From positions 1-64,000 of the forward strand of contig CAWIEK010000057.1 of NCBI GenBank assembly GCA_963835065.1: a stretch of DNA of 64,000 bases, written 5' to 3'. The stretch is from an uncultured Chthonomonadaceae bacterium. Its GTDB lineage: Bacteria > Armatimonadota > Chthonomonadetes > Chthonomonadales > Chthonomonadaceae. The translations under genes were made by a program, and so were the position numbers. Below the pieces are notes generated by a model. It ran no database searches. It had not been told where the DNA came from and was given only the letters and a program-made list of their open reading frames with translations. Shown in pieces: positions 38,867 to 62,938 of the stretch; position 1 is the stretch's first letter, and every line of letters begins with the position of its first letter.

Positions 38867-39222
38867 CCACCCGCTGCGCTAGAGACACAGAGAAACAGAG
38901 GTTTCACAGAGGAAGAAAAGAAGAAAAGGAGAAGAGGAGAGAGGAAACCGCGAAACACACGAAATAAACGAAAAAAGAAGAAAAGAAAGAAGACAAAGCA
39001 AAAAGTTCGAAGAATGTTCCAAAACCGTTCGGCTTTTCTGCTTCCTTTAGCAATCCGGTTTAATCCTTGTAATCCTGTTAATCCTGTCTATTTCCTCTTC
39101 GCCTTTTTTTTCGTCTTGGTTCGTGTGTTTCGCGGTTCCCATCTCTCCTCTTCTCCTTTTCTCCTTTTCTTCTTTTCTCTGTGAAACCTCTGTGTCTCTG
39201 TGTCTCTAGCGCAGCGGGTGGT
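38866..39222. repeat. Nested modular palindrome P1 (~357 bp)
   Basis: ACCACCCGCTGCGCTAGAGACACAGAG..purine tract..AACCGCGAAACACACGAA mirrored at the right end; unpaired AATCCTGT module inside. Confidence 0.92.
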
Positions 39223-40937: not shown

Positions 40938-42397
40938 ATGACCGACAACGCCCAACCCAACCCCGAACACGACGCCGAACAAACCGCGCGGCGAACCTTG
41001 GAACGCCTGCGCGACGCCACGCGGCACAGTCCGTATGAGAACAAGCTGTATCTTGTCGGCGGGCTGCTGCGGGATCGCGCGCTTGGCTTGCCCCCCGGCA
41101 GCGACCTTGACCTTGTGCTGGAGGGTGACGCCGTTGCCCTCGCGCATTTTCTTTATGGGTGCCGATTGTCGCGCCATTTTCCCGTCACCTATCCCCGGTT
41201 TGGAACGGCCATGCTCCACGTTGGGGTTTCCGACGACTTGGACGCGCCCGAAACCGCCGTAGAACTGGTATCCGCCCGCATGGAAAGCTACCAGTCCGAC
41301 TCGCGCAAGCCCGACGTGCGGCAGGGCAGTTTGCGCGACGATGTGTTCCGCCGCGATTTCACCATCAATACGCTGCTGGAAAACCTGCATACGGGCGAAA
41401 CGCTCGACCTGACCGGAACGCGCCCTGACCGATTTGCAGGCGGGTATCCTGCGCACCCCGCTGGAACCCCATGTCACGTTTTTCGACGATCCCCTGCGGA
41501 TGCTGCGCGCGGTTCGGTTCGCGGCCCGCTTCGGGTTTGAAATCGAAGCCGGAACCTGGCAGGCGATTTGTGAGGAATCCGAGCGCCTGCGCCCGCCGCA
41601 GATCGCGCATGAGCGCATCCGCGAGGAGTTCGTGAAGATCGCCAAACTGCCCGGCCCAAAATTTCGGCGCGGCATGGAACTGCTGCGCGCGTCCGGCCTG
41701 CTGGAAAAGTTTCTTGCGCCCATGCTGTCGATGATCGGCTGCGAACAAGGCCACTGGCATCCGTATGACGTGTGGACGCATACCCTTGTCGCGCTGGAAC
41801 ATCTGCCCGATACCGCCCGCCTCGAAATCCGGCTTGGCCTGCTCTGGCACGACTATGGGCAAGCCCCAAACGCAAACCCGAACCAATGACGCCAAAGGCA
41901 TCCGCTTTCCCGGACACCCGCAGGCCGGGGCTGAACTCGCCCGCGCCCTGATGAACCATCTCAAATTTTCCAGTGACGAAATCCGAGACGTGACCGCGCT
42001 GATTGCCAAACACATGCGCCTGGGCGAATACCGCCCCGACTGGACGGACGCGAGCGTCAAGCGCCTGATACGCGACTGCGGCTTTTATCTTGACGATTTG
42101 TTTATTTTAACCCGCTGCGACCAGGCCGCCGTCAACATTCCCGCCGAACAAGCCACTGATCTGGCCGCCCTCCGCGCCCGCATTGACGCACTCAACGCCG
42201 TCTCGAACGTAATGCAGATAGACAGCCCGCTCGACGGCAATGAAATCATGCAGGCGCTCGGTGTCGGACCCGGCCCGCACCTGCGCGACGCCAAAGCCTT
42301 TCTGACGGATGAAGTCATCGAAGGCCGCCTGCCGGAAGGCGACAAGGAAACTGCGCGTACCCTGCTGCAAAACTGGTGGCGCCAAAGACAAGGGTAA
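40938..42397 (+). CDS. cca: CCA-adding tRNA nucleotidyltransferase with HD domain; indels near 41417 and 41858
   Basis: LVGGLLRD, DLDL, RRDFTIN, DDPLRMLRA, ERIREEF, HD(Y)GKP spread over three frames. Confidence 0.88.
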
Positions 42398-42408
42398 CGG
42401 CAAAACCC

Positions 42409-42707
42409 TTCACCACAGAGGCACAGAGGCACAGAGGGGTCACAGAGGAAAACAAGGAGAGATAGAAACCGCGAAACACACGAACTAAACGAAAAAAGGA
42501 CAAAAAGAACAGAAGAACATATAGAAAAGTATCCAAAACCTGTAGAGTAACTGATTCCCTTTGCTCCCTTTGCCTCTTTGCGGTTCTTTTTGTTTTTCTT
42601 TTTTCGTTTAGTTCGTGTGTTTCGCGGTTCCCTCTCCTTGTCTCCTCTTCTTCTCTTCTTTTCTTCCCCTCTGTAACCCCTCTATGTCTCTGTGTCTCTG
42701 TGGTGAA
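42409..42707. repeat. Nested modular palindrome P2
   Basis: TTCACCACAGAGGCACAGAG..AACCGCGAAACACACGAAC mirrored; unpaired CTTTGC module. Confidence 0.92.
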
Positions 42708-44778: not shown

Positions 44779-45089
44779 TTTCACCACAGAGGCACAGAGA
44801 CACAGAGGGGTCACAGAGGGGAAGAAAAGAAGAGAGAGAAGAAGAGAAGAAAAGGAGATGGGGAACCGCGAAATACGCAAACCAAGACGAAAAAAGAAAA
44901 ACAAAAAGAACTGCAAAGAGGCAAAGGTGGCAAAGAGAAGTAGCGACTTTGCAGAGTTTTGCTTGTTCCTGGTTTTCCTCATGTCTTTTTGTTCTTTTTC
45001 GTTTATTTCGTGTGTTTCGCGGTTTCTATCTCTCCTCCTTTTCTTCTTTCTCTGTGAAACCTCTGTGTCTCTGTGCCTCTGTGGTGAAA
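44779..45089. repeat. Nested modular palindrome P3 (inverted copy of the P2 layout)
   Basis: Same modules; unpaired GCAAAG module on the left arm. Confidence 0.92.
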
Positions 45090-45111: not shown

Positions 45112-45861
45112 ATGCCCCGGTTTGTTGGAGCCGCCGATATTCACTCGCATCCCCTGCCCGGTATTGACGATGGCGCGGGTACGCTGCAAGACAGCGTGGC
45201 GATGGCCTGCCTTGCCGCGCGGTATGGCACGAGTTTGATGGTCGCCACGCCGCACCGCTGGTATGGCGGGCGCGAAAACACGCCGGAATTATTGCTGCGC
45301 CTCACGCATGAAGTGAACGAGGCGCTGAAGGCCATTCCCTGCGGGCGCTTTATTCAAATTATTGCCGGGCAGGAAGTGCCCCTGCGTCCCGAAACCGCTG
45401 AAGAACTGAAACACCGTCGGCTGCTCACATTCGGGGATGCGGGCAAATACGCGCTTGTGGAACCCCCGTTCGATCACCTGCCCGACTGGACGGTAACGGC
45501 GCTTGCCGACATTCTGGAAATGGGAGTCACGCCCATATTCGCGCACCCGGAGCGCAACGCCGACGTGCAGCGCGACCCCACCGTTCTGCGTGAAATCGTC
45601 CGGCTTGGCGCGTATGTGCAGCTGACGGCTATGAGCGTGGAAGGCGTCAACGGCGAACGCGCCCAACGCGCTGCCTTCTGGATTCTGGACAACCATCTGG
45701 CGACTGTGATCGCGTCCGACTGCCATTCCCCCACGCGCTGGCGTCCGCCCACCATGCGTGGCGCGTACCACGTCCTGTGCCAAAAGTACAACGAACCCCT
45801 CGCCCGCAAACTCTGCATCACCAACCCCACCGCCCTCGCCTTAAGCAAGCCCCTCCCATGA
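45112..45861 (+). CDS. PHP-family tyrosine-protein phosphatase (CpsB/YwqE-like)
   Basis: DIHSH..PGIDDG, VATPH, GQE, AHPERN, IASDCH. Confidence 0.93.
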   Translation: MPRFVGAADIHSHPLPGIDDGAGTLQDSVAMACLAARYGTSLMVATPHRWYGGRENTPELLLRLTHEVNEALKAIPCGRFIQIIAGQEVPLRPETAEELKHRRLLTFGDAGKYALVEPPFDHLPDWTVTALADILEMGVTPIFAHPERNADVQRDPTVLREIVRLGAYVQLTAMSVEGVNGERAQRAAFWILDNHLATVIASDCHSPTRWRPPTMRGAYHVLCQKYNEPLARKLCITNPTALALSKPLP

Positions 45862-45867
45862 AGGCAT

Positions 45868-45977
45868 CGGTGTTCAGGTATTCGGTGTTCAGGTATTCGG
45901 ATTGCCGCTTTTCGATTTTCGATTGCCCTTCCTCTGTCTCCTCTTCTCCTTTTCTCCTTTTCTTCTCTTCTTCCCCT
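45868..45977. repeat. Hybrid repeat tract (GGTRTTC, GATTTTC, pyrimidine module)
   Basis: cggtgttcaggtattcggtgttcaggtattcgg..ttttcgattttcgattg..ctcttctccttttctcc. Confidence 0.8.
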
Positions 45978-45990
45978 CGGCAAATATGCC

Positions 45991-46018
45991 TGAGACTCGC
46001 CGCTCCGGTTGCCGATAA
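45991..46018 (+). promoter_or_regulatory. Possible sigma-28 (FliA) promoter
   Basis: Exact GCCGATAA -10 at 46011-46018 upstream of flgB; weak -35. Confidence 0.45.
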
Positions 46019-46149
46019 TCGGAGAGAAGGCCATTCACAGCAACATATCTACTCCCGCTCGCGCTTGTACCCGGCTCTTCCAATGCGAACTCCCAACGCA
46101 TTGTCCCAATGCCTAATGCCTAGTGCTAATGCCTAACCCGGAGCCGGCC

Positions 46150-46536
46150 ATGTTCGACAAACTTTTCGGCGGCGATGTCTTCGTTGCCAGTACGCGCGCC
46201 CTTGACGCCTACGCCCTGCGCCATCAGACCATTTCCAACAACCTCGCCAACATCAACACGCCTGGCTACAAGCGGCAGGAAGTGCATTTTGAGGATCAGC
46301 TTGCGGGCGCATTGGCGGCCCGCAATGCCCCCGCTGCTGGCGCGTTAAATTCGGTTTCACAGGTCGCGCCCACCGTCGCCACGATTGGCAGCACGTCCCT
46401 GCGCGCCGACGGCAACAATGTAGACATGGAATCCGAAAACATTGATCTCGCCGTCAACACCCTGCGCTTTGAAACCCTGTCGCAGCAAGTCGGCGGCTAT
46501 TTCAGCGGCTTGAAGTCAGTAATCAATTCAAAGTAG
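46150..46536 (+). CDS. flgB: Flagellar basal-body rod protein FlgB
   Basis: ISNNLANINTPGYKR, RADGNNVDMESE. Confidence 0.95.
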   Translation: MFDKLFGGDVFVASTRALDAYALRHQTISNNLANINTPGYKRQEVHFEDQLAGALAARNAPAAGALNSVSQVAPTVATIGSTSLRADGNNVDMESENIDLAVNTLRFETLSQQVGGYFSGLKSVINSK

Positions 46537-46658
46537 TCAGTAGCGAGTAGTCAGTAGTCAGTAGACAATGTTTGTTCTCTGATAGCTTTGTATGTCAACA
46601 CAATCTTAGAGTAGAAGGGCATTTCTACTGACTACTGACTACTCGCTACTGACTACTT
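46531..46658. repeat. Perfect 35-bp inverted repeat of GTAGTCA heptamers
   Basis: 46531-46565 is the exact reverse complement of 46624-46658. Confidence 0.95.
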
Positions 46659-46670
46659 ATGGAGTATTCC

Positions 46671-47114
46671 ATGCCTCTCGGTTCTTCCATGCACATCAGC
46701 GCGTCGGGTTTGACGGCGGAACGCCTGCGCCTGGATGTCATCAGCAACAATATCGCCAACGTCAACACGCCCAACTTTCGGCGGCAGGAAGTGACCTTCG
46801 CGTCCCGCGCCGGGGGTGGCAGCAGTTTCGCTTCCCAACTGGCGGCTGCGCGCGCAGGCAGCCTGTCCGGGGAGGGAGCGGGCGAGGGCGTACAGGTGTC
46901 CGCCATACGCCCGGATATGGACCGCCCGTTCAAAGTAGTTCACGATCCCTCCAATCCCGCCGCCGACAAGGACGGCAACGTCAACATGCCTAATGTCGAA
47001 CCCATCATCGAAATGGTAGACATGATGGCCGCCACCCGCGCCTACGAAGGCGGCGTCTCCGCCATCACCGCCGCTAAACAAATGCAGCAACGCGCGCTCG
47101 ATATAGGGAAATAG
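46671..47114 (+). CDS. flgC: Flagellar basal-body rod protein FlgC
   Basis: ISASGLTAERLRLDVISNNIAN, DPSNPAAD..MPNV..EMVDM..RAYE; GGAG RBS. Confidence 0.96.
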   Translation: MPLGSSMHISASGLTAERLRLDVISNNIANVNTPNFRRQEVTFASRAGGGSSFASQLAAARAGSLSGEGAGEGVQVSAIRPDMDRPFKVVHDPSNPAADKDGNVNMPNVEPIIEMVDMMAATRAYEGGVSAITAAKQMQQRALDIGK

Positions 47115-47216
47115 GCATCAGGCATTAGGCATCAGGCATTAGGAAAATTCTTCATACGCCAAATTTTCCTTCTAACGCCTTGCTCCTAATGCCTAATGCC
47201 TAATGCCTGATGCCTA
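47112..47216. repeat. 33-bp inverted repeat of TAGGCAT heptamers
   Basis: 47112-47144 vs 47184-47216, 32/33 match. Confidence 0.95.
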
Positions 47217-47220
47217 AACC

Positions 47221-47574
47221 ATGAACATTACCGCCATAACCCCAATTACAACCATTCTCGCGCCGGAACGGAGTTTGAAATCCGACCCGGTTCCCGAAGC
47301 GATTTCGTCCGCGCCCGGCGCGTCGTTCCCGATGGAAGCCGGCAGCGCGCCGACCAAATCGTTTGGCGCAATGCTTTCGGACGCCATTGCCGGAGTGAAT
47401 CAGGCGCAGGTACACGCCGGCGATATGACCGCGCGCTTTGCGGCGGGCGAACCGATGGACGTGCATCAGGTCATGATCGCCTCCCAGGAAGCCAGCGTCG
47501 CCCTGAGCCTCGCCCTGCAAGTCCGCAACAAACTCGTGGACGGTTATACTGAAATCATGCATGTGAATGTTTAG
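47221..47574 (+). CDS. fliE: Flagellar hook-basal body protein FliE
   Basis: SFGAML..VN..DVHQVMIA..QVRNKLVDGYTEIM. Confidence 0.95.
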   Translation: MNITAITPITTILAPERSLKSDPVPEAISSAPGASFPMEAGSAPTKSFGAMLSDAIAGVNQAQVHAGDMTARFAAGEPMDVHQVMIASQEASVALSLALQVRNKLVDGYTEIMHVNV

Positions 47575-47577
47575 GAG

Positions 47578-47699
47578 GTAGTCAGTAGTCAGTAGTCAGT
47601 AGCCAGTAGAAATGCCTCTCTCCTCACAGATGCGCGGCGCAGAAACATCTTACAGGAAACGGTTCCTCTACTGACTACTGACTACTGACTACTGACTAC
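47578..47699. repeat. 33-bp inverted repeat of GTAGTCA heptamers
   Basis: 47578-47610 vs 47667-47699, 32/33 match. Confidence 0.95.
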
Positions 47700-47719
47700 T
47701 TCCCCAAGGAGACTCGACG

Positions 47720-49448
47720 TTGCTAGACCGCGCACGAGAGTGGTGGGAAAAACTGGGGCGTGCCAACCAACTGGCCCTGGTGCTGACGACGGTGGGCGTA
47801 TTGATCGCGCTCATCGGCTTTGTCACCTGGGCGGGTACGCCGGACTATGTGCCCCTGTTTTCCAATTTGTCGGCGCAGGATGCCAACGCCATTGCCGAAA
47901 AGCTGAAGGAATCCAACGTGCCTTCCAAGCTGGCGCAGAGCGGCGCGACCATTGAAGTGCCCGCGCAGTTTGCCGATGAGCAGCGCATAAAGATGGTGGC
48001 GGCGGGACTGCCCGCCGCGTCCGCCAATGCCACGACGGGAATGAGCGACGCGCTGACGGGCCAGCACATGGGCGATACGTCGGCGATTGAAGACCTGCGG
48101 ATTCGCTCCGCGAAGGAAAACCAGGTCAGCAAAAGCCTGATGATGATGGACCCCATCGCCAACGCGGTGGTGCAGTCCGCCGCTTCCGACAATAATCCGC
48201 TGATGTTGAGCAATCACGAAACGTCGGCAGCCGTGCTTGTCACCACCAAGCCGGGACATTCGCTGACGGATGAAAACGTGCATGCCATTGTGCGGCTCAC
48301 GCAGATGTCGTTTACCGGATTACAGGAAAAGAACATCAGCGTGACTGATTCGCAGGGCAACGTGCTTTGGGATGGCAACCATGCGGGCGGCGTAGGCGGC
48401 GGTGAGGGCATAGATAAAGCGCGGCGCAAGCTGGAAACTGAGAAGCGCGCGGAAATTCAGAACGCCCTCAATATCGTCTTTGGCGCGCACAACAGCATTG
48501 CCACCGTCAGCATCGAACTGAATTCCGATAGGCGGCAGGAGCACCGCGTGGAAGTGCTGCCCGGCGCGGTCACGATGAAGGAAAACAATGAAACGCATCT
48601 GGAAGGCGCAGGCAAAATAACCAGCACGACGGCTGCGGGCGCGACGGCCAACGTCGGCGGGCCGCCTCCCGCCAATCCCGCGCCGGGCGGCGGGCCGGGA
48701 GTTCCCGGCTATGCGTCGGCGGCGGTACAGCGAGCCTAAAGGCATTTTCAACGAATCAAAGTCGATCACGACTTCGGAACCCGGCAAGACGGAAATCACC
48801 ACGGAAAGCGGGCCGGGCAAGATCGAGAAAATGAGCGTCAGTGTGCTTGTAGACACCAACAAGTACAAAGACCCCGCTGTGCTGGCCGACATCAAAGCTA
48901 AGATCAAGGAAATGGTTGCCGTCAGCATCGGTATCTCCCCCACCGAAGCCGCCAATGGCCGCATGGTATCGGTTGTAGATATGCCGTTCGACCATACGCA
49001 GGAGATGCAGGATCAGGCGGCGGGCGAGCAAGCGCGCCGCGCCGACATGCTCAAACAGCTTGCCGGCCTGCTGATTCCCTTCCTGATTATGGGCATGGCG
49101 CTGTTCCTGCTGGCCCGCGCCCTGCGCAGGTCCAACCCGGCTGCGTTCGCCAAAAATTCCCTCCTGCCCGCCGGGGCCGGCGGGGGCATGGGAGCCTTGC
49201 CGCCGGGTTCGTCCCTGATGCTGGATGGGAACAGCCTGCCGATGCCCGGCCAGATGGTGGGCAGCGCGGACATGATTGATGGCGAAGACGGCCCGCTCGC
49301 GCTCTCCCATGGCAGCAGCGCGCCCAAGAGCTTTGAAGTGATCGAAGAAACATTCGACGCCAACCTGGAAAGCATCCTGCACCTGACCCGCGCCAAGCCG
49401 GACATGGTCGCCATGCTGCTGAAGAGTTGGCTGAGTGAGGAACAGTGA
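47720..49448 (+). CDS. fliF: Flagellar M-ring protein FliF (divergent), indel near 48725
   Basis: TM + YVPLFSNLSAQDANAI, NISVTDSQG; second frame IEKMSVSVLV, TM, PDMVAMLLKSWL; lies between fliE and fliG. Confidence 0.88.
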
Positions 49449-49450
49449 GG

Positions 49451-49566
49451 AAGTTGATAGTTGATAGTTGATAGTGGTCGGCGGGAAGGCGCTTTCCTTA
49501 GCCGCGTAATACGAGGAGGCATGGTTGAACAAGCCTTCTGAACTATCAACTATCAACTATCAACTT
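49451..49566. repeat. Perfect 25-bp inverted repeat of GTTGATA heptamers
   Basis: 49451-49475 vs 49542-49566. Confidence 0.95.
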
Positions 49567-49582
49567 TTCCGAAGGAGATGCC

Positions 49583-50608
49583 GTGAGACCCAGTCCCGCT
49601 ACGCAATTGAACAGTCGGCAGAAAGCGGCCATTTTGTTGGTCGCGCTTGGCCCGGAAGCATCGGCCAAGATATACAAGCACCTGCGCGAGGATGAAATCG
49701 AGAACATGACGCTGGAAGTGGCGCGCATGGGGAAGATCGCCCCGGAAGCGCGGCGGCAGGTTGTGCATGATTTCCATGAAATGTGCATCGCGCAGGAAGT
49801 AATTTCCGAGGGCGGCATAGATCAGGCGCGTAAGGCGCTGGAAGCCGCGTTCGGGGCGGAAAGAGCCAACGAAGTCGTGAACCGCGTCACGCAGGCGCTG
49901 CAAGTGCTGCCGTTCGACTTTATCAAAAAGACCGACCCGACGCAATTACTGTCCTTTATTCAGGACGAACACCCGCAAACGATTGCTTTGATTCTGGCGC
50001 ATCTGGATTCCAAGCAAGCGGCTGCCGTTGTGTCCGGGCTGCCACAGGAACTGCGGGCGGAAGTGGCGCGGCGCATCGCCATCATGGACAGAACTCCCCC
50101 GGAAGTGATCCGCGAAATCGAGCGGGTTTTGGAGCGCAAACTGTCGGGCGCAGTCGTGACGCAGGCGTTTACCGCTGCCGGCGGCGTGAAGGCGCTGGTG
50201 GAAGTGCTGAATTATGTAGACCGCACAACGGAAAAGACTATTCTGGAAAACCTGTCGGAAACCAGTCCCGAACTGGCCGACGAAGTGAAAAAACTGATGT
50301 TCGTGTTCGAGGACATCACGCTTCTGGACGACGGCTCCATTCAGAAGGTGCTGCGCGAAGTGGACAGCAAGGAACTGGGCCTGGCCTTGAAGGGCGTGGG
50401 CGAGGAAGTGCAGTCGCGCATCTTCAAGAACATGAGCGAACGGGCGGCCACCATGCTCAAGGAAGATATGGAGTTTATGGGGCCGGTTCGCCTGCGCAAT
50501 GTCGAAGAAGCGCAGCAGCGCATTGTCGGCGTAATCCGGCGTCTGGAAGAAAACGGCGAGATCGTCGTCGCGCGCGGCGGTGGCGGCGGCGATGAGATCA
50601 TTATCTGA
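49583..50608 (+). CDS. fliG: Flagellar motor switch protein FliG
   Basis: QKAAILL, EHPQTIALIL, MFVFED, NMSERAA. Confidence 0.98.
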   Translation: MRPSPATQLNSRQKAAILLVALGPEASAKIYKHLREDEIENMTLEVARMGKIAPEARRQVVHDFHEMCIAQEVISEGGIDQARKALEAAFGAERANEVVNRVTQALQVLPFDFIKKTDPTQLLSFIQDEHPQTIALILAHLDSKQAAAVVSGLPQELRAEVARRIAIMDRTPPEVIREIERVLERKLSGAVVTQAFTAAGGVKALVEVLNYVDRTTEKTILENLSETSPELADEVKKLMFVFEDITLLDDGSIQKVLREVDSKELGLALKGVGEEVQSRIFKNMSERAATMLKEDMEFMGPVRLRNVEEAQQRIVGVIRRLEENGEIVVARGGGGGDEIII

Positions 50609-50767
50609 TTTTCGATTTTTGATTGCCGATTTTCGATTGATGCCTCATTGCCACTCGATTCGCGTGAGTACAACTTGAAAGTGTCCCATTTGGAGAAGCA
50701 GGAACAGTGCAGAAAATTCACAATCCACAAGCGGCAATCGAAAATCGAAAATCGAAAATCGAAAATC
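50607..50767. repeat. 33-bp inverted repeat of GATTTTC heptamers
   Basis: 50607-50639 vs 50735-50767, 30/33 match. Confidence 0.93.
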
Positions 50768-50772
50768 CCTTT

Positions 50773-51615
50773 GTGCCTTTAAGCGAGACCTGTCTGCCGC
50801 GTGTCGGGCAGGAAAACGCGACCGTTGAGCCGGTGAGTTGGTTTCGAACGCTTGCGCCCGAACTGCCCGGACTGGTCGCGCCTGCCGTCGCGTTGCCTCT
50901 GCCGGTGCAGCGCAATGGCGCGGTTCCCACGTTTGCGGCGTTTCGGGACATGGGCGAGATCGAGCGCGAGGAGCGGGAACGGCGCATGATGGGTACGCCG
51001 GAACCGCCCGAAATCGTGCAGATGCGCTATGAAGCGGAACAAACGGCGCAGGAACTTGTCGGGCATGCGTACATGCAGGCGCAGGCGATTGAGGATGAGG
51101 CGCGGCGGCAAGGCTATGCAGCAGGTTTCGCGGAGGGCGCGGCGGCAGGGCGCGCGGAAGCGGAACAGATCGCGCAACGGCAGGCTGAAGTGGATAAAGC
51201 CATCTGGCATGAAGACATTGCCGCGTTTATCGCGCATGTCGAGACCGAGCGGCAATTGGCCTGGAACGCGCTGGAACCACAGATTATCAGCATGGTTTTT
51301 GAACTGGCAAAGCACGTTATCAAGCAGGAAGTGGAAGTCAGCCGGGATGTGGCTTTGTCGGTAGTGCGTAACGCCCTGCGCCGGGTCGTGGAGGGGGGAA
51401 GCCTGCGTATCCGCGTCAACACCGAAGATTTGCAGACCATACGCGGCAGCCGCGAGGAACTGCTCACATTAGTAGACAACATCCGCCACGTCGAAATCAT
51501 CGAAGACCGGCGCGTAGGCGTGGGCGGCTGCATCGTGGAAACCGACGCCGGCAGCATTGACGCCCGCCTCGAAACCCAACTCGCCGAAGCCGCCAGCCTC
51601 CTCGAATTGAATTGA
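50773..51615 (+). CDS. fliH: Flagellar assembly protein FliH (start uncertain)
   Basis: GYAAGFAEG AxxxG repeats, IRVN, GGCIVETDAGSIDAR. Confidence 0.9.
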   Translation: MPLSETCLPRVGQENATVEPVSWFRTLAPELPGLVAPAVALPLPVQRNGAVPTFAAFRDMGEIEREERERRMMGTPEPPEIVQMRYEAEQTAQELVGHAYMQAQAIEDEARRQGYAAGFAEGAAAGRAEAEQIAQRQAEVDKAIWHEDIAAFIAHVETERQLAWNALEPQIISMVFELAKHVIKQEVEVSRDVALSVVRNALRRVVEGGSLRIRVNTEDLQTIRGSREELLTLVDNIRHVEIIEDRRVGVGGCIVETDAGSIDARLETQLAEAASLLELN

Positions 51616-51721
51616 CCTTATGGAAGCATCATGCAAAAACGACCTGGCCGCGCTGATACGCGCCGCCGAGAACCCTATGGGAACTCGGCGGCGCGTTCTA
51701 TTCCGTACCATGATCGGCGCA

Positions 51722-52483
51722 TTATTTGCGGCGGCGCAGGGCAAGCGCCGCAAGCCCGACAGCGCCCAACAAAGCCAGTGACGAGGGTTCGGGAACGGTT
51801 GACGTGGGGCAAATCGCTACGGTGTTCGAGTCCAGCGTCACCGCGCCATTTCGCGCCAGTATACCGCCGTCAAGGACCGTGGCTCCCGTATTCAGGGTGA
51901 TGCTTGTCAGGGCAAGGATGTGCCCCGTGAACGCCGTGCCCGTGCCAAGCGTCGCCGAACTTCCGACCTGCCAGAACACGTCGCAATCGTCCGCGCTGTT
52001 GATGACGCGAACTGAAGAGCCACTGGCCGTAATGAGAGTGCTGCCGATTTGAAAGTCAAAACGGGCGTTCGGGTCGCCGAGCGTGTTGAGGGTAAGGGTT
52101 CCGGTCAGGAAAGCCGACGTATCAAAATGATAGACGCCCGGCAGCAGCGTCTTTCCTCCCAAATCCTGACCGGTAAAGTTTTGGCCGAACGGCTCGTTGG
52201 CTAACACATTATAAGCGGTCGTAACGTCGGATTGCGCCTGCATCGCGACCATATCGCCCGCGTGGATAGTTCCATTGGTCACGATGCCGGGCGGAAAGCC
52301 CGTAATCGCGTTCCCCGGCCAGACTCCCAAATTCCCTGAAAGCGTGGTCACGTTTGCGTTCGTGACTGTGGAACCACCCAGAACCGCAAAACTTTCGGCG
52401 GTGCCGAGAAACTGAGCGCGGGCTTGAGTGTGCAGCCCAAGAACAAGCAAAGTGGTTACTGCAGTTCCCAACCTATGTTTCAT
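51722..52483 (-). CDS. Ice-binding (DUF3494) PEP-CTERM protein
   Basis: LGTAESFAVLGGSTVTN, DLGG..PGVY, VFWQVGSSATLG, GAVTLD; VPEPSS + TM + RRRK. Confidence 0.92.
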   Translation of the reverse strand: MKHRLGTAVTTLLVLGLHTQARAQFLGTAESFAVLGGSTVTNANVTTLSGNLGVWPGNAITGFPPGIVTNGTIHAGDMVAMQAQSDVTTAYNVLANEPFGQNFTGQDLGGKTLLPGVYHFDTSAFLTGTLTLNTLGDPNARFDFQIGSTLITASGSSVRVINSADDCDVFWQVGSSATLGTGTAFTGHILALTSITLNTGATVLDGGILARNGAVTLDSNTVAICPTSTVPEPSSLALLGAVGLAALALRRRK

Positions 52484-52732
52484 CCCAAGCCTCCTGTCAA
52501 GCAACCCTGTCAAGCGTAGATACCCGTTGTGCTTCTTCTCAACGCCGAGAAAGCCCGAAGAGATGTTGTTGGTTTCCACAATAGTACACATATCTTCCCG
52601 TTTTTACCAATTAAAATGTACCTTATTTCATAGACAAAATTACCTATTTCTATCTTCCCCACACTATTTACTCCGTATTTTACCTGCTTATTTGTATGAA
52701 TTGGCCTTGCCTATTCCCGACTGCCATTGCCT

Positions 52733-55033: not shown

Positions 55034-55184
55034 TTCACCACCAATACGCGAAGAACACCAAGAGAGGCAAAGGAACGAAATTTAAGTTCGATGTGGACTT
55101 GTCTCGTTCCATGCTGTAGGGTGCAGTTTTCTTCTTTGATTTCTCTTCTTTTTTGCTTGGTGTTCTTCGTGTCTTGGTGGTGAA
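55034..55184. repeat. Palindrome P5 with CACCACCAAGACACGAAGAACACCAAG-type arms
   Basis: ttcaccaccaatacgcgaagaacaccaag..cttggtgttcttcgtgtcttggtggtgaa. Confidence 0.85.
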
Positions 55185-55218: not shown

Positions 55219-56640
55219 ATGGAACTGATTGTTGTGTTGGGCGCGATATTCGCCCTGTTTGTGTTTACCATAGCGATGGTCACGGCGTTTCTGCGCAGCG
55301 TTCCCGCCGGGCAGATTCTGCTGGTGAAAGGCTGGAGCGGGGCCGGCCTGCATATTTTTCGCGGGCCGACCAAAGCGTTCGTCGTGCCCGTGTTCAACGA
55401 AGTGCGCTCCATACCCGCGCAGGCGATCAATGTAGACATTGAAATCACCGACCAGACGGCGGATGTGGACGCCAACGGCAGGCCCGCGCCCGTCAAAGTC
55501 ACGGTTCGGGCGTCGGCCATCGTCAGCGTGGGCGAAAGCGACGCGATGGTCAATACGGCGGCGAACAAGTTCTTTTCCAAGCCGCCCGGAGATCAGCTTT
55601 CCACGCTGACGGACGTGCTATCGTCTGCGGGACGCCGCGCCATCAACCTGCTTAAGCACGATCAGTTGTTTAACGCCCGCCCCGCGCAGGCCATTGCCCC
55701 GACCGGCAGCGCCCTTGTTGTGCCGCCGGTAGACGCGCTCACCGTCGCGCGCCCCGGCACGGATTTGACGGTGCGCGACGATGACGAACTGGCCGTGATT
55801 ATCAAGGATGCGTGTTCGCGCGAACTGCTGGATTTGGGATTGTCGTTCAACAGTCTGAACATCAAGGCGGTTTTGAGCGAAGTGGCCGAAGCGCGACGCC
55901 GCGAGTCCGCCGCCCGCGCCAAAGCCAGCGCGGATGTGGTGCAGGCGCAGGAAGAACAACGCGCCCGTATCGCGCAATTGGAAGCGCAGCAAAAAGTCAA
56001 CGATCAGGAACGCGCCCTGAACATGCAGATCGCCTCCAACGGCGCGTCCATTGCCCGCGCTGAAGCCGAAAAGCAGGCCGCCTTCCGCGAACAGCGCTCG
56101 GCGGAACTGGCGGCAACCCAGATCACGCAGGCCAACGCGGACGCGCAGCAAAACGTGATTCAGCAGGAAGCGGAAGGCAAAGCGCAGGCCGCGCGCATAC
56201 TCGCCATTGCCGAAGCGGAAGCCGCTGCGATTCGCATGAAAGCCGAAGCGCTGTCGCAAGTCGGCGGCGCGTACCTTGATCTGCGGCGTCTGGAAATGGC
56301 CCCGGCCCTGACCCGCGAAGTCGCCAACGCCCTTGCCAACGGGCAATTTGTCAACTTCGGCACATCAGGTGATGGCGGTCACAGTGCCGCCGCGTCCGGT
56401 TCCGATGACGTGATGCGCGTGGTGCAAACCCTGATGGCCGCGCAGGTCGTCACGGGCGGCAACGGCATGAACGGCAACAATAACAACGGCGGTAACGGCA
56501 ACGGCAACGGTAACGGTGTACGGCGCGAAATGCTTCCCGCCATCCCCGTAACCACCACAATGGATGTCGAAGCGCCCATTGTGACCCGCCCGACGGTGGC
56601 GCAAAACCCGCCGCCGCGCCCACCGCAAACACGCAGATAA
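55219..56640 (+). CDS. Flotillin/SPFH-family membrane protein
   Basis: N-terminal TM, FVVPVF, AEA-rich coiled coil, Asn/Gly tail. Confidence 0.85.
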   Translation: MELIVVLGAIFALFVFTIAMVTAFLRSVPAGQILLVKGWSGAGLHIFRGPTKAFVVPVFNEVRSIPAQAINVDIEITDQTADVDANGRPAPVKVTVRASAIVSVGESDAMVNTAANKFFSKPPGDQLSTLTDVLSSAGRRAINLLKHDQLFNARPAQAIAPTGSALVVPPVDALTVARPGTDLTVRDDDELAVIIKDACSRELLDLGLSFNSLNIKAVLSEVAEARRRESAARAKASADVVQAQEEQRARIAQLEAQQKVNDQERALNMQIASNGASIARAEAEKQAAFREQRSAELAATQITQANADAQQNVIQQEAEGKAQAARILAIAEAEAAAIRMKAEALSQVGGAYLDLRRLEMAPALTREVANALANGQFVNFGTSGDGGHSAAASGSDDVMRVVQTLMAAQVVTGGNGMNGNNNNGGNGNGNGNGVRREMLPAIPVTTTMDVEAPIVTRPTVAQNPPPRPPQTRR

Positions 56641-56922
56641 AGGAAGAAAAGGAGAAAAGAAGAAAAGGAGAAAAGGAGAGGGAAACCGCGAAAAACGCGA
56701 AACAAACAAAAACAGAACAATTAAAGAAATAGACAGGATTAATGGGATTAGAAGGATTAAACAGGATTATGAACCGAGAAGAGAAGCCTGTTTGTTCTAA
56801 ATATGCGGCGGCAACTGCAAATTTGCCCCTGTTCTTTTCGTATTTTTTCGTTTATTTCGTGTGTTTCGCGGTTCCCCATCTCCTTTTCTCCTTTTCTTCT
56901 TTTCTTCTCTCTTCTTCTCTCC
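56641..56922. repeat. Nested modular palindrome P6
   Basis: Purine tract + AACCGCGAAA mirrored; unpaired (ACAGGATTA)n module. Confidence 0.9.
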
Positions 56923-56936
56923 ATAGTTGAGATACG

Positions 56937-58041
56937 ATGATGAAGTCTTTGATTGGGTTGACAACTGAGGAATTGGGAGTGGCGGCGCAGGACGCGGGAC
57001 AGGCCGCGTACCGGGGCAAGCAGATCGCCACTTGGATTTACAAGCGCGGGGCGGAGTCGCTGGACGCCATGAGCGATTTGCCGCGCGAGTTTCGGGCGCG
57101 TCTGGCGGATACCTATAAGGTTGGCCTGCCCGATGTGGCGCATAAAGAAGTATCGGCGGACGAAACGGTCAAGTATCTGATGCGGCAATCCGACGGTTTG
57201 ACAATTGAAAGCGTGTTTTTGCCCTACCCGGAGCGTGTTTCGGTTTGCCTGTCCACGCAGATCGGCTGTGCCGCCGGGTGTACATTTTGCGCCACCGCGC
57301 AGGGCGGATTGGCGCGGAATTTGATCAACCGGCGAAATCGTCGGGCAGTTTTTGCGGATGCAGAAGGAAAGCGAGCGGCGTATTTCCCATGCCGTGTATA
57401 TGGGCATGGGGGAGCCGTTGTGGAACTACGACAACGTAATCAAGAGTTTGAAAGTGCTTGGTCAGGAAGTGGGCGTGTCGCTGCGGAACCTGACGATCAG
57501 CACGGTTGGCGTGGTTCCCGGCATCCGCGCCTTGGCGCAGGAAAGTTTGCCGATTACCTTAGCCCTATCGCTTCACGCGCCCAACGATGACCTGCGCGCG
57601 CAATTGATTCCGACTGCCCGCAAGTGGAAACTGGACGAGATTTTGGACGCCTGCGGCGAGTACGCACGCAACACGGGGCGTAACCTGACCTTTGAATACC
57701 TGCTCATCGGCGGCGTCAACGACAGGCCGGAACACGCGAGGGAACTGGCAAGCCTGCTGAAAGCCAAAAAACTGCCGGGCAACGTCAACTTGATCCCGTT
57801 CAACTATGTCGAAACCACGCAGGGCTTTCAGCGTCCGACAATAGAAAGCGTAACGCGCTTCCGGCAGGAATTGGAACGCGCCGGACGTATCGCCACGCAG
57901 CGCATGACGCGCGGCCACGCCATCGCCGCCGCCTGCGGCCAATTGCGCCGCAATGTAGAAAAGAACGCCGCACCGAATGACGCGCAGACGTTTATCCCGC
58001 TCCGAGTAATTGAGAACTCTTTGTCGCTGACACCGGGCTGA
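56937..58041 (+). CDS. rlmN: 23S rRNA m2A2503 methyltransferase, +1 indel near 57325
   Basis: CLSTQIGCAAGCTFC, MGMGEP, ISTVG, SLHA, FEY, NLIPFN, AACGQL. Confidence 0.93.
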
Positions 58042-59795: not shown

Positions 59796-61811
59796 ATGAG
59801 ATCGCTTGCTTTGCAACGTTATAGCGCCGCTTTGCTGCTCACGGCTTTGTGCGCCTGCCCGCCCTACGCCGCGCCACAGGGCAATGCCAGTCAGCCCGCG
59901 CCTGTCAACGCCACCGGCAAGCCCCAAAAGCCATCCAAGCCCGCGCCGAAAACGTCTGCCGCAGAGTCAGTGCAGGGCTTGAAAATCGGGGAAGATGTTG
60001 CCATTACTCACATGCGCGGAATGCACATCGGGCAGAAAGAAGGCGAGGTTATCTTTGCAGGCCCGGATGTTCATCTGGAAAGCGTCAACAAAGCAAAGGG
60101 TACGCATATTGATGTGATTGCCAATCACGCCATCGGAGTCAGACGCCCCAACCACCACGATACGGCAGACCTGACCGGCAATGTGCGCTACACGATCACG
60201 GAGAAAACGCCAGATGGTACGCGCATCGTGCAGGGAACGGCGCAGCGCGCTTACTATACGGAAGCGAACAAGGGACTGCAGCTGCTCGGCGGCGTCAACG
60301 CTACGCTGACCGACCCCCTCCACTTTGACGGCCCGGCAACCCTGCGCGTCGCCACCCTGAACATGCCGGAGGAAGGGCACATTGAACTGACGGGCGATCC
60401 GAGTACAACGGATGCGCGCTTTACGCCCCACATTCCCACCCCCGCCGAAGCAGCCAAGCCGAAAAAGCCTGCCGAAAACGCGACTGCCGCCAATCTGAAA
60501 ACCAAGCGCAAAGCAATTCCGGCTGTCGGCACGGTGCATGTCACCGGCTTCCGCACGGGGCATGTCAACCAGAATCAAGACGCGGCTTTTGAAGGCCCGC
60601 TTGTCACGGTTGAAACCAACAACGCGCAGACCAAAGCGCAAAACACGTTCAAAGCGCCGCGTATTACGGCGGGTTTGGAAAAACTCAAGCGAAGCATCAA
60701 CGCGCAGGGCGGCATTCAGTTCGACAGCCGCGCTGTGGACGCCCAACACAACCCGCAGCGTTTGGAAGGAACCGCAGCAACGGCTTCCTGGAACGAAGAA
60801 AACGCCACATTGGAGGTGGACGGCAATATCATCGCCACACTGACCAATCCCGTTGCCCTGCTGGAACCCGCCACGCTGACCGCCGGACATCTCACCGCCA
60901 CATTAAGCGACACCCCTCGCTACGTCGTCACCGGGACACCCGAACGCACCCGCTTTGCCTTTGCTCCACGTCCGGCAGCAAAGAAGGGAAAAGGGAAAAG
61001 GGAAAAGGGAAAAGAAGCCGTCGCCGCGAATCCGCAAACTGTGCCTGTAACGCCCAATACGCCGAACAATAGCGCAACGCCCGCTCCTGCTACTGCGCCC
61101 GACAAGCCCACAGCGCAGGGAACAATAACTCAGGGAACAGGGAACAGGGAACAGGGAACAGAGGGGAAGAGGGAAGAGTCGCCAGAATTAGAGCCACCCG
61201 ACCTTGACCAATCCGGCCCAACACCCAACACCCAACACCCAACACCCACTTCCCTGTTCGCCTTCGGCAACATCGTTGTATCGGGGTTTCAGACGGCGAC
61301 CTATGAACCGGGCAGTACGATTACGGTGGCGGGACCGAAGGTGCATTTCACGTCCACAAATGGCAAGACAAAAGACTTTGCCGAGATGTTCGCGCCCAAT
61401 CTATCCGCCGAGTTCGACGACGATAACAATATTGTGTCTACCAAAGCGTCCGGCGGCGTGACCTACAAGTTCGAGCAGCCCATCAAAGGGCGCAAGGAAA
61501 CGCGGTGGATGGAGGGCGATGGGCGCAATGTGGTGTTCACCAACACAGAAGATTCCCGCATGGTGCAAGTGGAAGGGATCAGCCGTTTGGACTACTACAA
61601 CATCATCGCGTTTCCCGATGTGCTACACAGCCGCTATCTCAACAAAGACGGTCAGATAACTTACAATCTGGCAAACGGGGATTTCGATGATAAAAGCCCG
61701 TCAACGCAGGTCAACGTTAATTTTTCCTTGTACGCGCCGCCGCCCAAGCCCGCTCTGCCTGCGAACGCGAAGAAGTCTAATGGAAAGCGCAAGGAAGGCA
61801 TTAGGCATTAG
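59796..61811 (+). CDS. Large exported LptA/OstA-like beta-jellyroll protein
   Basis: Repeated LTGNV / LLGGV / AQGGI / ASGGV beta units; lies between lptC and lptB. Confidence 0.65.
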   Translation: MRSLALQRYSAALLLTALCACPPYAAPQGNASQPAPVNATGKPQKPSKPAPKTSAAESVQGLKIGEDVAITHMRGMHIGQKEGEVIFAGPDVHLESVNKAKGTHIDVIANHAIGVRRPNHHDTADLTGNVRYTITEKTPDGTRIVQGTAQRAYYTEANKGLQLLGGVNATLTDPLHFDGPATLRVATLNMPEEGHIELTGDPSTTDARFTPHIPTPAEAAKPKKPAENATAANLKTKRKAIPAVGTVHVTGFRTGHVNQNQDAAFEGPLVTVETNNAQTKAQNTFKAPRITAGLEKLKRSINAQGGIQFDSRAVDAQHNPQRLEGTAATASWNEENATLEVDGNIIATLTNPVALLEPATLTAGHLTATLSDTPRYVVTGTPERTRFAFAPRPAAKKGKGKREKGKEAVAANPQTVPVTPNTPNNSATPAPATAPDKPTAQGTITQGTGNREQGTEGKREESPELEPPDLDQSGPTPNTQHPTPTSLFAFGNIVVSGFQTATYEPGSTITVAGPKVHFTSTNGKTKDFAEMFAPNLSAEFDDDNNIVSTKASGGVTYKFEQPIKGRKETRWMEGDGRNVVFTNTEDSRMVQVEGISRLDYYNIIAFPDVLHSRYLNKDGQITYNLANGDFDDKSPSTQVNVNFSLYAPPPKPALPANAKKSNGKRKEGIRH

Positions 61812-61943
61812 ATATTAGATGTTAGATATTAGGCAGAAGATAGAAGGCAGAAGGCAGAAGGCAGAAGCCCAATACCTAACACCCGAATACCTGAACACCT
61901 GAACACCCTAAAACCTTAGAATAAAACCCTAAAACCCTAACCC
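61796..61943. repeat. Hybrid spacer: TTAGGCA/TTAGATA and GGCAGAA arms, then ACCTGAAC/AACCCTAA arms
   Basis: The entire intergenic gap is made of short tandem units. Confidence 0.9.
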
Positions 61944-61947
61944 AACC

Positions 61948-62850
61948 ATGCCTGAACAACTGCTGGAAATCACGGCTAAAAACCTTATCAAGAAATATCG
62001 CGGCAGGCCCGTCGTCAATGGCATCAGCATTGATGTGCATCAGGGTGAAATTGTCGGGCTGCTTGGGCCGAACGGCGCGGGCAAAACCACGACATTCTTA
62101 ATGGTTGTCGGACTCGTCAAGCCGCACCGGGGGCAGGTGCTGCTGGACGGGCAGGATATTACGCGCCGGCCCATGTACAAGCGCGCCCGCGCCGGTATCA
62201 GCTATCTGCCACAGGAAGCCTCGGTTTTTCGCAATTTGTCGGTGCAGGAAAACATTCATCTTGTGCTGCAAATGCAGCGACTGTCGCGCAAGCAGCGGGC
62301 CGAACGCGCCGATCAATTGATGGAGCAACTGCACGTCGAGAACCTGCGGCATCAGGTGGCGCGGACGCTTTCGGGCGGGCAGCGTCGGCGCGTCGAGATT
62401 GCGCGTTCGCTTGCCGCCAACCCGAAATTCATTCTGCTGGACGAGCCGTTTACGGGCGTAGACCCCAAAGCCATTGAGGACATCGAAGACATTATCGTCA
62501 GCCTGACCCGTTCCGCAGAGCGTATCGGTATCCTGATTACCGACCACAACGTCGAAGCCATGCTGCGCATCACCCAACGCGCCTACATCGTCGCGGACGG
62601 CCAGATTCGCGTTGCCGGCAAATCCAGTGAACTGATGTACGACCCGGAAGCCCGCGCCGCGTATTTCGGCGAACGCTTCGGCCAGCCCCGCGACTCCGCC
62701 CATGAACAAGCGGAACGCGAAGCCCGCCTCGCGGCGGAAGCCGATCTGCAAGCCCGCCTCGCGGCGGAAGCCGAACTCCGCCGCGCCAGTGGCGAGTGGG
62801 AGATGGAAGAGGAAAAAGGGAAAAGGGAAAAGGGAAAAGCAGAAGAATAG
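61948..62850 (+). CDS. lptB: LPS export ABC ATPase
   Basis: GPNGAGKT, YLPQEASVF, LSGGQRRRVEIAR, LLDEPF, ITDHNV. Confidence 0.96.
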   Translation: MPEQLLEITAKNLIKKYRGRPVVNGISIDVHQGEIVGLLGPNGAGKTTTFLMVVGLVKPHRGQVLLDGQDITRRPMYKRARAGISYLPQEASVFRNLSVQENIHLVLQMQRLSRKQRAERADQLMEQLHVENLRHQVARTLSGGQRRRVEIARSLAANPKFILLDEPFTGVDPKAIEDIEDIIVSLTRSAERIGILITDHNVEAMLRITQRAYIVADGQIRVAGKSSELMYDPEARAAYFGERFGQPRDSAHEQAEREARLAAEADLQARLAAEAELRRASGEWEMEEEKGKREKGKAEE

Positions 62851-62938
62851 GATGCGCAGCGCAACACTTTGAATGTTGTCGTAGGCGAAGGGTTTAGCCC
62901 GTTGCCTAAGCTAAACTTTTCCCTTTTCCCTTTTCCCT
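62817..62938. repeat. Perfect 23-bp inverted repeat of GGGAAAA heptamers spanning the lptB stop
   Basis: 62817-62839 vs 62916-62938. Confidence 0.9.

Follow-up and report, generated by a model that had tools for sequence, protein, structure and literature searches.

The window analysed here, a stretch of 64,000 nt from an uncultured Chthonomonadaceae bacterium, is part of contig C57 of genome G000 (8.0 Mb, 92% complete) and encodes a flagellar operon in which all five junctions from flgB to fliH hold an inverted repeat, each of the ten arms being a period-7 array. With a probability of roughly 0.6, these five hairpins belong, as members without a gene, to a class of repeat-armed mobile cassettes that is spread over the genome and includes the intervening sequences (IVS) of rRNA. 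They are likely to represent a type of mobile DNA not described before, and not signals adapted to the flagellar operon, for which they are probably passengers. Members of the class consist of a G-rich 5' arm of four to five units of 7-8 nt, followed by an interior and by the arm in inverted form. A PF05635/S23p gene or a GxxExxY nuclease gene is carried by the larger members, and the occupant of a site varies among relatives.

The five hairpins of the flagellar operon

The first element (46531-46658) lies between flgB (46150-46536, + strand, TIGR01396) and flgC (46671-47114, +, TIGR01395) and belongs to the GTAGTCA family. Its 35-nt arms (46531-46565 and 46624-46658) are 100% identical and enclose a 58-nt interior in the family's forward orientation, and the left arm overlaps the flgB stop codon (TAG, 46534-46536). 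The next element (47112-47216) precedes fliE (47221-47574, +, TIGR00205) and is of the TAGGCAT family, with 33-nt arms (47112-47144 and 47184-47216; 97%) and an interior of 39 nt; the first letters of its left arm are the flgC stop codon. Between fliE and fliF (47720-49448, +) there is a second GTAGTCA element (47574-47703) with arms of 33-37 bp (47574-47610 and 47667-47703; 95% over 37 nt) and a 56-nt interior in the reverse orientation. The fliF/fliG element (49451-49566) is of the GTTGATA family, with 25-nt arms (49451-49475 and 49542-49566; 100%) and an interior of 66 nt. The last element (50607-50767), between fliG (49583-50608, +, TIGR00207) and a fliH-like gene (50773-51615, +), features 33-nt arms of the GATTTTC family (50607-50639 and 50735-50767; 91%) and a 95-nt interior, and its left arm overlaps the fliG stop.

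The values that the initial annotation lists for arms, identity and loop length (39-95 nt) were recovered, and its gene names hold by NCBIfam: FlgB, FlgC, FliE, FliF and FliG exceed the cut-offs, while the matches of FliH lie below them. Its description of the loops as unrelated fails for flgB/flgC and fliE/fliF, which belong to one family in opposite orientations. The hairpins have predicted folding energies of -53 to -81 kcal/mol. None of the six terminator-like sites (short GC stem, 3-8-nt loop, T run) in 45800-51800 falls within the five elements, and Rfam returned no match to them at the gathering score, just three sub-threshold matches to miRNA hairpins.

A genome-wide population at gene junctions

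The genome-wide scan for arrays that had been proposed for this locus identified 2,667 period-7 arrays and 1,210 strong inverted repeats in G000. Periodic arms are present in 716 of the repeats, and 570 of these, the elements considered below, have loops of 20-200 nt. Such inverted repeats are not due to chance, since 295 scoring at least 18 occur in three contigs (1.93 Mb) and one occurs after shuffling of the contigs. Gene positions were taken from a simple custom caller with reliable stop codons and less reliable starts. The elements lie between co-oriented (439), convergent (68) and divergent genes (32, with 72 expected), within genes (23) and at contig edges (8), and they fill 435 of 4066 co-oriented junctions (11%). 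The longest run of filled junctions is the five of the flagellar operon (scored by the script as three because fliF is split), for which the chance expectation is 0.06, and the operon is therefore a hot spot.

The left arm most often starts two bases inside the stop codon of the upstream gene, and this stop is TAG for 158 of 281 elements, compared with 26% genome-wide. The arms are also polar: the left arm always has one version of its unit, usually the G-rich one (more G than C in 541 of 570), the 30 commonest units were never found reversed as a left arm, and in mixed tracts the left-type arms come before the right-type ones in all 157 inside genes and in 732 of 743 between genes. G000 encodes Rho, and avoidance of Rho is a candidate explanation of this polarity. 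The median number of units per arm is 4.4 both at period 7 (848 arms, 31 nt) and at period 8 (145 arms, 35 nt).

Each arm unit defines a family. The GTAGTCA family has 69 elements, with four units in 49 left and 56 right arms, mostly plus GTAG; five GTAG cores are present in 109 of 147 arms. Measured over 132 arms, identity to the unit is 97%. The interiors are 49-66 nt long (about 57 nt) and share an oriented, imperfectly palindromic consensus with 59-70% identity per base. They are about 51% identical to one another and are thus decayed compared with the arms. The confidently oriented copies at tandem junctions comprise 30 in the sense and 25 in the antisense orientation. Interiors of the TAGGCAT and GTTGATA families are heterogeneous. 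The proposal that architecture rather than sequence is conserved is accurate between families, but not within a family, where the arms themselves are conserved. The variant unit GTAGCGA is indeed mirrored in both arms at flgB/flgC; it is a family subtype, mirrored in 4 of 69 elements, and not a private mutation. Elements with the GAAGTGA arm subtype have interiors more alike than those of the family (0.65 versus 0.51; p 0.0025, n=7). An origin of the GTAGTCA interior as a remnant of cargo was rejected, the interior profile matching none of 17 cassette interiors (best E 1.8), and this profile did not match the interior of the 23S copy described next.

Copies in rRNA and within genes

Both 23S rRNA genes of G000 (C49:338082-341304 and C51:114802-118025; 3,223-3,224 nt) contain three inserts, all of which lack an open reading frame (ORF). 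The inserts have GTAGTCA arms at Rfam model position 1218, which we take to be helix 45 in E. coli numbering, and CAGGGAA arms near position 1895, with a decayed insert at 312. The hairpin at 1218 carries GTAGTCA in G000, TAGGGAG in G001, TAGGGAT in G002 and a short loop in G005. Near 1895 there is a short loop in G002, G005 and G014, and another insert in G001. A TAGGCAT insert is found in a 16S gene (C51:120793-120932). Fragmented rRNA is predicted for G000.

The same arm alphabet is present in frame within genes, as 277 tracts in 236 called genes. The arms of these tracts are often unmatched (109 of 157 mixed in-gene tracts, versus 130 of 732 between genes). At in-gene positions compared with homologues from G001 and G002 (29 alignments, some of paralogues), the relative usually has a different tract or none. 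Families with stops in every frame, such as GTAGTCA, are absent from genes, and the in-gene orientation of arms tracks stop codons and peptide type. Selection against pairing within genes is mixed, being significant in two of six families. The initial annotation suggested a cassette that targets gene boundaries, which is too narrow for a class that also lies in frame within genes and in rRNA. Some tract-bearing genes resemble valS, leuS and ribonucleotide reductase genes, judged by motifs. Seven paralogues of G000 (C2:19552, C16:38384, C50:138519, C53:147582, C53:198855, C53:535218 and C65:1748) have in-frame tracts at one position that directly follows a PELLDxLA motif and appears to be a hot spot common to them.

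Gene-filled members of the class

All three PF05635 four-helix-bundle genes of G000 lie within periodic arms at gene junctions. The gene on C8 is bracketed by GTAGTCA arms, the other two are on C25 and C33, and a fourth, decayed PF05635 gene sits in TAGGCAT arms. Two earlier suggestions gained support here: that the hairpins are empty footprints of a cassette, as the same arm units bracket the three genes and one short element holds a gene remnant, and that four-helix-bundle genes are candidate cargo. The remnant, at C28:18359, consists of the last ~24 codons of a PF05635-type gene with 62% identity over 21 aa (E 2.7e-6) to a G021 protein that shares its arm unit, and the element is what an internal deletion left of a gene-filled one. 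The GxxExxY genes are similarly placed, two of the three in G000 lying in inverted repeats by script and the third having unmatched arms by eye.

The arrangement extends beyond G000. Within the host family, inverted repeats bracket 14 of 18 PF05635 loci (two further loci being unmatched by the query) and 21 of 28 GxxExxY loci, with periodic arms in 15 of the 28, mostly of 8-10-mers. From other phyla, 80 homologues of the C8 protein were taken, of which 77 had sufficient flank; 63 of these 77 are bracketed by periodic arms, compared with 2 of 150 ordinary small G000 genes used as a control. The motif AGT[CT]A is present in the arm units of 37 of 62 such homologues and in none of 11 cassettes from other clades; clade labels are loose, since one of 15 inner branches in the tree of 18 family cargo proteins is strongly supported. 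The C8 protein matches PDB entry 2GSC, which is described as a homopentamer (PMC4990558). In viral contigs, two loci only were found. Two further genes within repeat arms of G000 (C70:4867-5649 and C50:144714-146101), which we take from a motif to encode nucleotidyltransferase-like proteins, represent another cargo type.

Turnover of occupants among relatives

The comparison of orthologous junctions that had been proposed for this locus supports the empty-cassette reading: in relatives, a site may be vacant, taken by a different family or occupied by a gene. By eye, arms are present at four of the five flagellar junctions in G002 and G003, at two in G001 and G015, and at four in G023 with the fifth partly armed; of the 15 other loci, most have none. 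The flgB/flgC junction is 6 nt long in G001, and in G002 it contains an element with 8-mer arms, the interior of which ends like that of the window though the arm unit differs. At flgC/fliE there are 5 nt in G002, ~30 nt without arms in G001, and, in contigs from runs X1 and X3, a different stretch of 98 letters, one such contig being ~95% identical in the genes. The fliE/fliF junction has GTAGTCA arms in G001 and an 8-mer unit in G002, fliF/fliG has different units in G001 and G002, and fliG/fliH has a GAGAGTG unit in G002 and no arms in G001.

A broader comparison with G002 covered 600 kb (30 stretches) with 135 orthologous junctions, of which 45 with a gap of at least 400 nt were dropped. 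The remaining 90 comprise 16 filled in both genomes, nine in G000 only, seven in G002 only and 58 in neither (p 1e-6). The unit is identical in two of the 16, and by eye several of the one-sided junctions hold degenerate elements. The same comparison with 200 kb of G001 used 26 of 33 junctions and gave two filled in both genomes, nine and zero filled in one, and 15 in neither. The two matchable PF05635 sites of G002 both differ in G000, where one is a gene-less 9-mer element and the other a toxin-antitoxin stretch preceded by a TAGGCAT arm. Among close strains, most contigs of runs X1, X2, X3 and X5 end at arms, and one replacement was seen.

Proposed mechanism and alternatives

The cassettes would be copied and exchanged as DNA and persist where the host tolerates them. 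A more specific version can be put forward only tentatively, namely that this is transposase-free mobile DNA whose arms are read by its own pentameric four-helix-bundle protein or GxxExxY nuclease, and which homes into older cassettes and overwrites them, whether between genes, in the linkers of proteins or in hairpins of rRNA. In the main reading, too, the arms would be kept as binding sites for the cargo protein, and a PF05635 pentamer would suit four to five units per arm. The protein may act in trans with a nuclease or host enzyme. New elements would preferentially land in or over old ones, which would give both turnover at the same site and composite tracts of unmatched arms. The sites that survive selection would be the gaps between stop codon and ribosome-binding site, the linkers of proteins and the tips of rRNA hairpins. 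The 25-35-bp stems predicted in the flagellar mRNA, which RNase III probably can cut, would be a tolerated by-product and not the reason for their presence.

Several observations weigh against these proposals. No target-site duplication was found for k of at least 3 among 562 elements (k=2, 314 versus 290±10; k=3, 111 versus 101±8; k of at least 4, at chance), and duplications might be lost from old insertions. Linkage of the arms to a transposase, integrase or reverse transcriptase was not found, and no movement event was itself observed. Near-identical young interiors are absent from the 69 GTAGTCA elements, bar one probable assembly duplicate, and three of the four arm subtypes have no excess interior similarity. 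A cargo remnant is present in only one of 534 short interiors, and G001 (97% complete) has elements yet no PF05635 match. Period-9 arms have just 2.9 copies (median). The strict AGT[CT]A motif is missing from both other family members of the C8 clade (0 of 2), and related Bacteroidota make up much of the set of C8-protein homologues; co-inheritance of gene and arms would explain motif sharing without binding. Occupancy shared between relatives may reflect which junctions tolerate any insert.

Candidate movers were examined and rejected. A TA-duplication model, prompted by flgC/fliE, fails genome-wide. No transposase was recognised by eye in ORFs within long-loop arms, the profile search covering the Y1 family only. 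The four Y1 (PF01797) matches in G000 are flanked by other repeats; the Y1 (IS200/RAYT-like) genes at C42:76378-76995 and C51:102871-103595 have their own non-periodic inverted repeats of 54-75 nt, and palindromes related to these lie between genes in G001 and G002. Neither of the two reverse transcriptases of G000 adjoins arms or cargo genes. One (C49:679208-683817) is beside genes which we take from their sequence to be cas1-like and CRISPR-accessory-like, and the other, of 476 aa with an N-terminal extension, is 3' of a 646-aa ORF (C50:52482-53912).

The alternative that fares best is one without mobility, in which old arrays stay in place and their units are renewed by slippage, template switching between arms and gene conversion among ~3,000 arrays. 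It would account for the occupation of the same sites in G000 and G002, both between and within genes, for the flgB/flgC interior of G002, which has other arms but the same kind of ending as its counterpart in the window, and for the missing target-site duplication. Family interiors also occur under other arm units, and mirrored arm deviations, mostly shared subtypes, number 127 where 1-3 are expected for independent arms. It leaves unexplained the shared, oriented interior at 69 unrelated sites, the clean empty junctions, the gene-filled and empty states of one site, the tight unit count, and the occurrence of the same gene-plus-arms unit across phyla, and it is considered rather unlikely.

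The second alternative, one of two readings offered by the initial annotation, is that the host selects the junction stems as RNA signals, retained for RNase III processing or for per-cistron stability or translation. The flagellar stems of 25-37 bp and the presence of an RNase III gene are consistent with this, as is the cleavage by RNase III in vitro of a heptamer-bearing 28-bp IVS stem from Coxiella (PMC4990558); by analogy, cutting of the flagellar stems is plausible. The depletion between divergent genes, the refilling of the same junctions in relatives and the run of five filled junctions point the same way, and by crude start calls Shine-Dalgarno-like words lie 5' of 143 of 230 downstream genes versus 1034 of 2895 others. 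The arms themselves argue otherwise. On the mRNA strand their mismatches comprise 101 G-U versus 128 A-C (136 versus 168 in a second count), giving no G-U excess; terminator-like hairpins failed as a control for this count (5 versus 5 in 26 hairpins). Across 299 copies at mRNA junctions the median difference between sense and antisense folding is -0.3 kcal/mol, and 157 fold better in sense (p 0.33), which speaks against tuned mRNA stems. Of the flagellar hairpins, flgB/flgC and fliF/fliG fold better in sense and the other three in antisense. The rRNA copies, which took the place of that control, in contrast favour the transcribed strand, by 12-32 kcal/mol (5 of 5) in cut-outs that include native helix bases and by 8-25 kcal/mol (4 of 4) when compared arm to arm, with a difference between strands of just 1.3 kcal/mol for the 16S copy. 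Selection on RNA structure can therefore be seen in 23S rRNA but not in mRNA. Because the arms are near-perfect, a bias has little room to show, and the folding test is not final. Arm sequence is conserved and not pairing alone, interiors occur in both orientations, many arms are partnerless, and genomes of the same genus have stemless junctions of 5-30 nt. Selection of the stems for mRNA processing or stoichiometry is not supported and is regarded as improbable.

An RNA-templated route, in which a hairpin RNA in complex with an Avd-like cargo protein is reverse-transcribed onto DNA breaks, is very unlikely. Priming at both broken ends on different templates would yield unmatched left-right composites, which agrees with the fixed order of left before right arms and the many unmatched in-gene tracts, and the missing target-site duplication fits as well. 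A weak bAvd-like match (E 6e-5, under the cut-off) was obtained for the C8 protein, and Avd is described as a pentamer resembling S23 that works with a reverse transcriptase on RNA (10.1101/2023.10.23.563531). Both reverse transcriptases of G000 are, however, away from arms and cargo genes, unmatched tracts are rare in the GTAGTCA family, its sole true orphan arm lacks a partial interior, interior substitutions are not adenine-biased, and nested DNA insertion followed by deletion yields the same order of arms. An assembly artefact, suggested by frameshifts (fliF, and cca and rlmN, which look split) and by the fact that no run contig spans the entire stretch, is negligible given that independent genomes carry such elements at the same junctions, that an X3 contig (47278-47609) crosses from fliE through the left GTAGTCA arm, and that an X1 contig (50390-50639) crosses from fliG through its left arm.

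Other features of the window and genome

The fliF gene is read in two frames (47720-48739 and 48711-49448) that are broken by a frameshift near 48,720 (48711-48739). The gene is a single frame of 572 aa in G002 and 575 aa in G001, and contigs of three runs have four letters fewer at 48724-48731. The frameshift is probably an assembly error and possibly a real break. Genes for a CCA-adding enzyme (cca, 41434-42397) and an RlmN-like protein (rlmN, 56937-58041) are each seen in two frames, which suggests indel errors in the assembly. Near-duplicate regions in G000 (C27:5810 and C29:8164; C43 and C69) are probably due to strain mixture.

An unpaired right-type TAGGCAT arm (46108-46136) is located immediately 5' of flgB, and a composite tract of two left-type arms and one right-type arm, all unmatched, follows the stop of the gene upstream (45867-45971). 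Directly downstream of the fliH-like gene, an ice-binding-like PEP-CTERM protein is encoded on the reverse strand (51722-52591); fliI, presumably the next gene in the operon order, does not adjoin. Larger nested elements with 8-9-mer arms of the CACAGAGG, AAAGGAGA and ACCAAG types are found at 38881-39207, 42409-42707, 44779-45089, 55034-55184 and 56639-56921, and are of the class that brackets GxxExxY genes at other sites. An in-frame composite tract with the same arm alphabet lies within a 703-aa ORF (60984-61248, +), and an intergenic composite (61796-61947) has three left-type and two right-type arms with no partners among them. At 62805-62938, the left arm of an element encodes the final codons of an lptB-like ORF, which exceeds the family model by ~60 aa; this junction has no gap in G002.

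Comparison with known systems

IVS of 23S rRNA occur with or without an S23p/PF05635 ORF in Coxiella burnetii, Leptospira and Salmonella, and the origin and function of the IVS and of the S23p protein are described as unclear (PMC4990558). The flagellar elements have the terminal inverted repeats and the stem of ~25-35 bp typical of IVS, and further likenesses are heptamer repeats on the 5' side, four-helix-bundle cargo, patchy distribution and replacement of a small rRNA loop (PMC4990558). As in IVS, larger members with the same arms have an S23p/PF05635 ORF within the stem; the five flagellar ones are ORF-less. Unlike IVS, these five lie between protein genes, yet two of their four families have members in 23S or 16S rRNA. 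The available account describes IVS from rRNA helices, whereas here hundreds are found at protein-gene junctions and in ORFs, in many families that replace one another. No description of these cassettes outside rRNA was found in a literature search, in which subscription journals were largely uncovered.

The heptamer arrays (TAACTGA) of Beggiatoaceae, Cyanobacteria and Bacteroidetes are similar in having two to six copies, in ending just 5' of starts or overlapping stops, and in being patchy over phyla (PMC4679880). That study reports 169 direct sets and one inverted repeat, proposes translational control, gives no evident mechanism for the spread of the repeats, and does not contain the terms 'helix bundle' or 'intervening sequence'. 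In G000, by contrast, the arrays form left and right pairs in dozens of units. G000 shows rRNA IVS and intergenic heptamer repeats as one population, the same arm units being present in rRNA, at 11% of co-oriented junctions, in 236 genes and around PF05635 genes. G000 contributes copies in rRNA that belong to the junction families, a control for strand-dependent folding, the extent of composite tracts in frame, and the rule of unit counts. In-frame arms are a source of low-complexity inserts that confuse protein annotation. If the more specific version proposed above is true, 23S IVS, the unexplained bacterial heptamer repeats and low-complexity inserts (REQGTGN, SSFILHP) would have a single origin, and PF05635 would have its first function.

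MITEs (miniature inverted-repeat transposable elements; Correia/NEMIS, ERIC, RUP and YPAL) are likewise non-coding, 100-200 bp long and of high copy number with terminal inverted repeats, and are intergenic, co-transcribed and at times fused in frame to genes; NEMIS stems are proposed as RNase III substrates (PMC2229807). As far as these descriptions go, the elements of G000 differ in that target-site duplications or TA ends were not detected, the arms are tandem arrays, the interiors are far more diverged than the arms, and no transposase was recognised in the gene-filled form. REPIN/RAYT systems (doublets of repetitive extragenic palindromes, REPs, and their associated Y1 transposases), including GTAG-tagged REPs, share a pair of conserved, inverted ends that flank a spacer of lower conservation, a copy number in the hundreds, the presence of several families in one genome, and ends that often give the TAG stop of the upstream gene (PMC3116915, PMC3733652). 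They differ from the elements of G000, as far as described, in that the arms here are tandem heptamer arrays and not palindromes, and the Y1 genes have different repeats of their own. The elements work like MITEs or REPINs and are built like rRNA IVS, but they show no target-site duplication, REP palindromes or linked RAYT gene.

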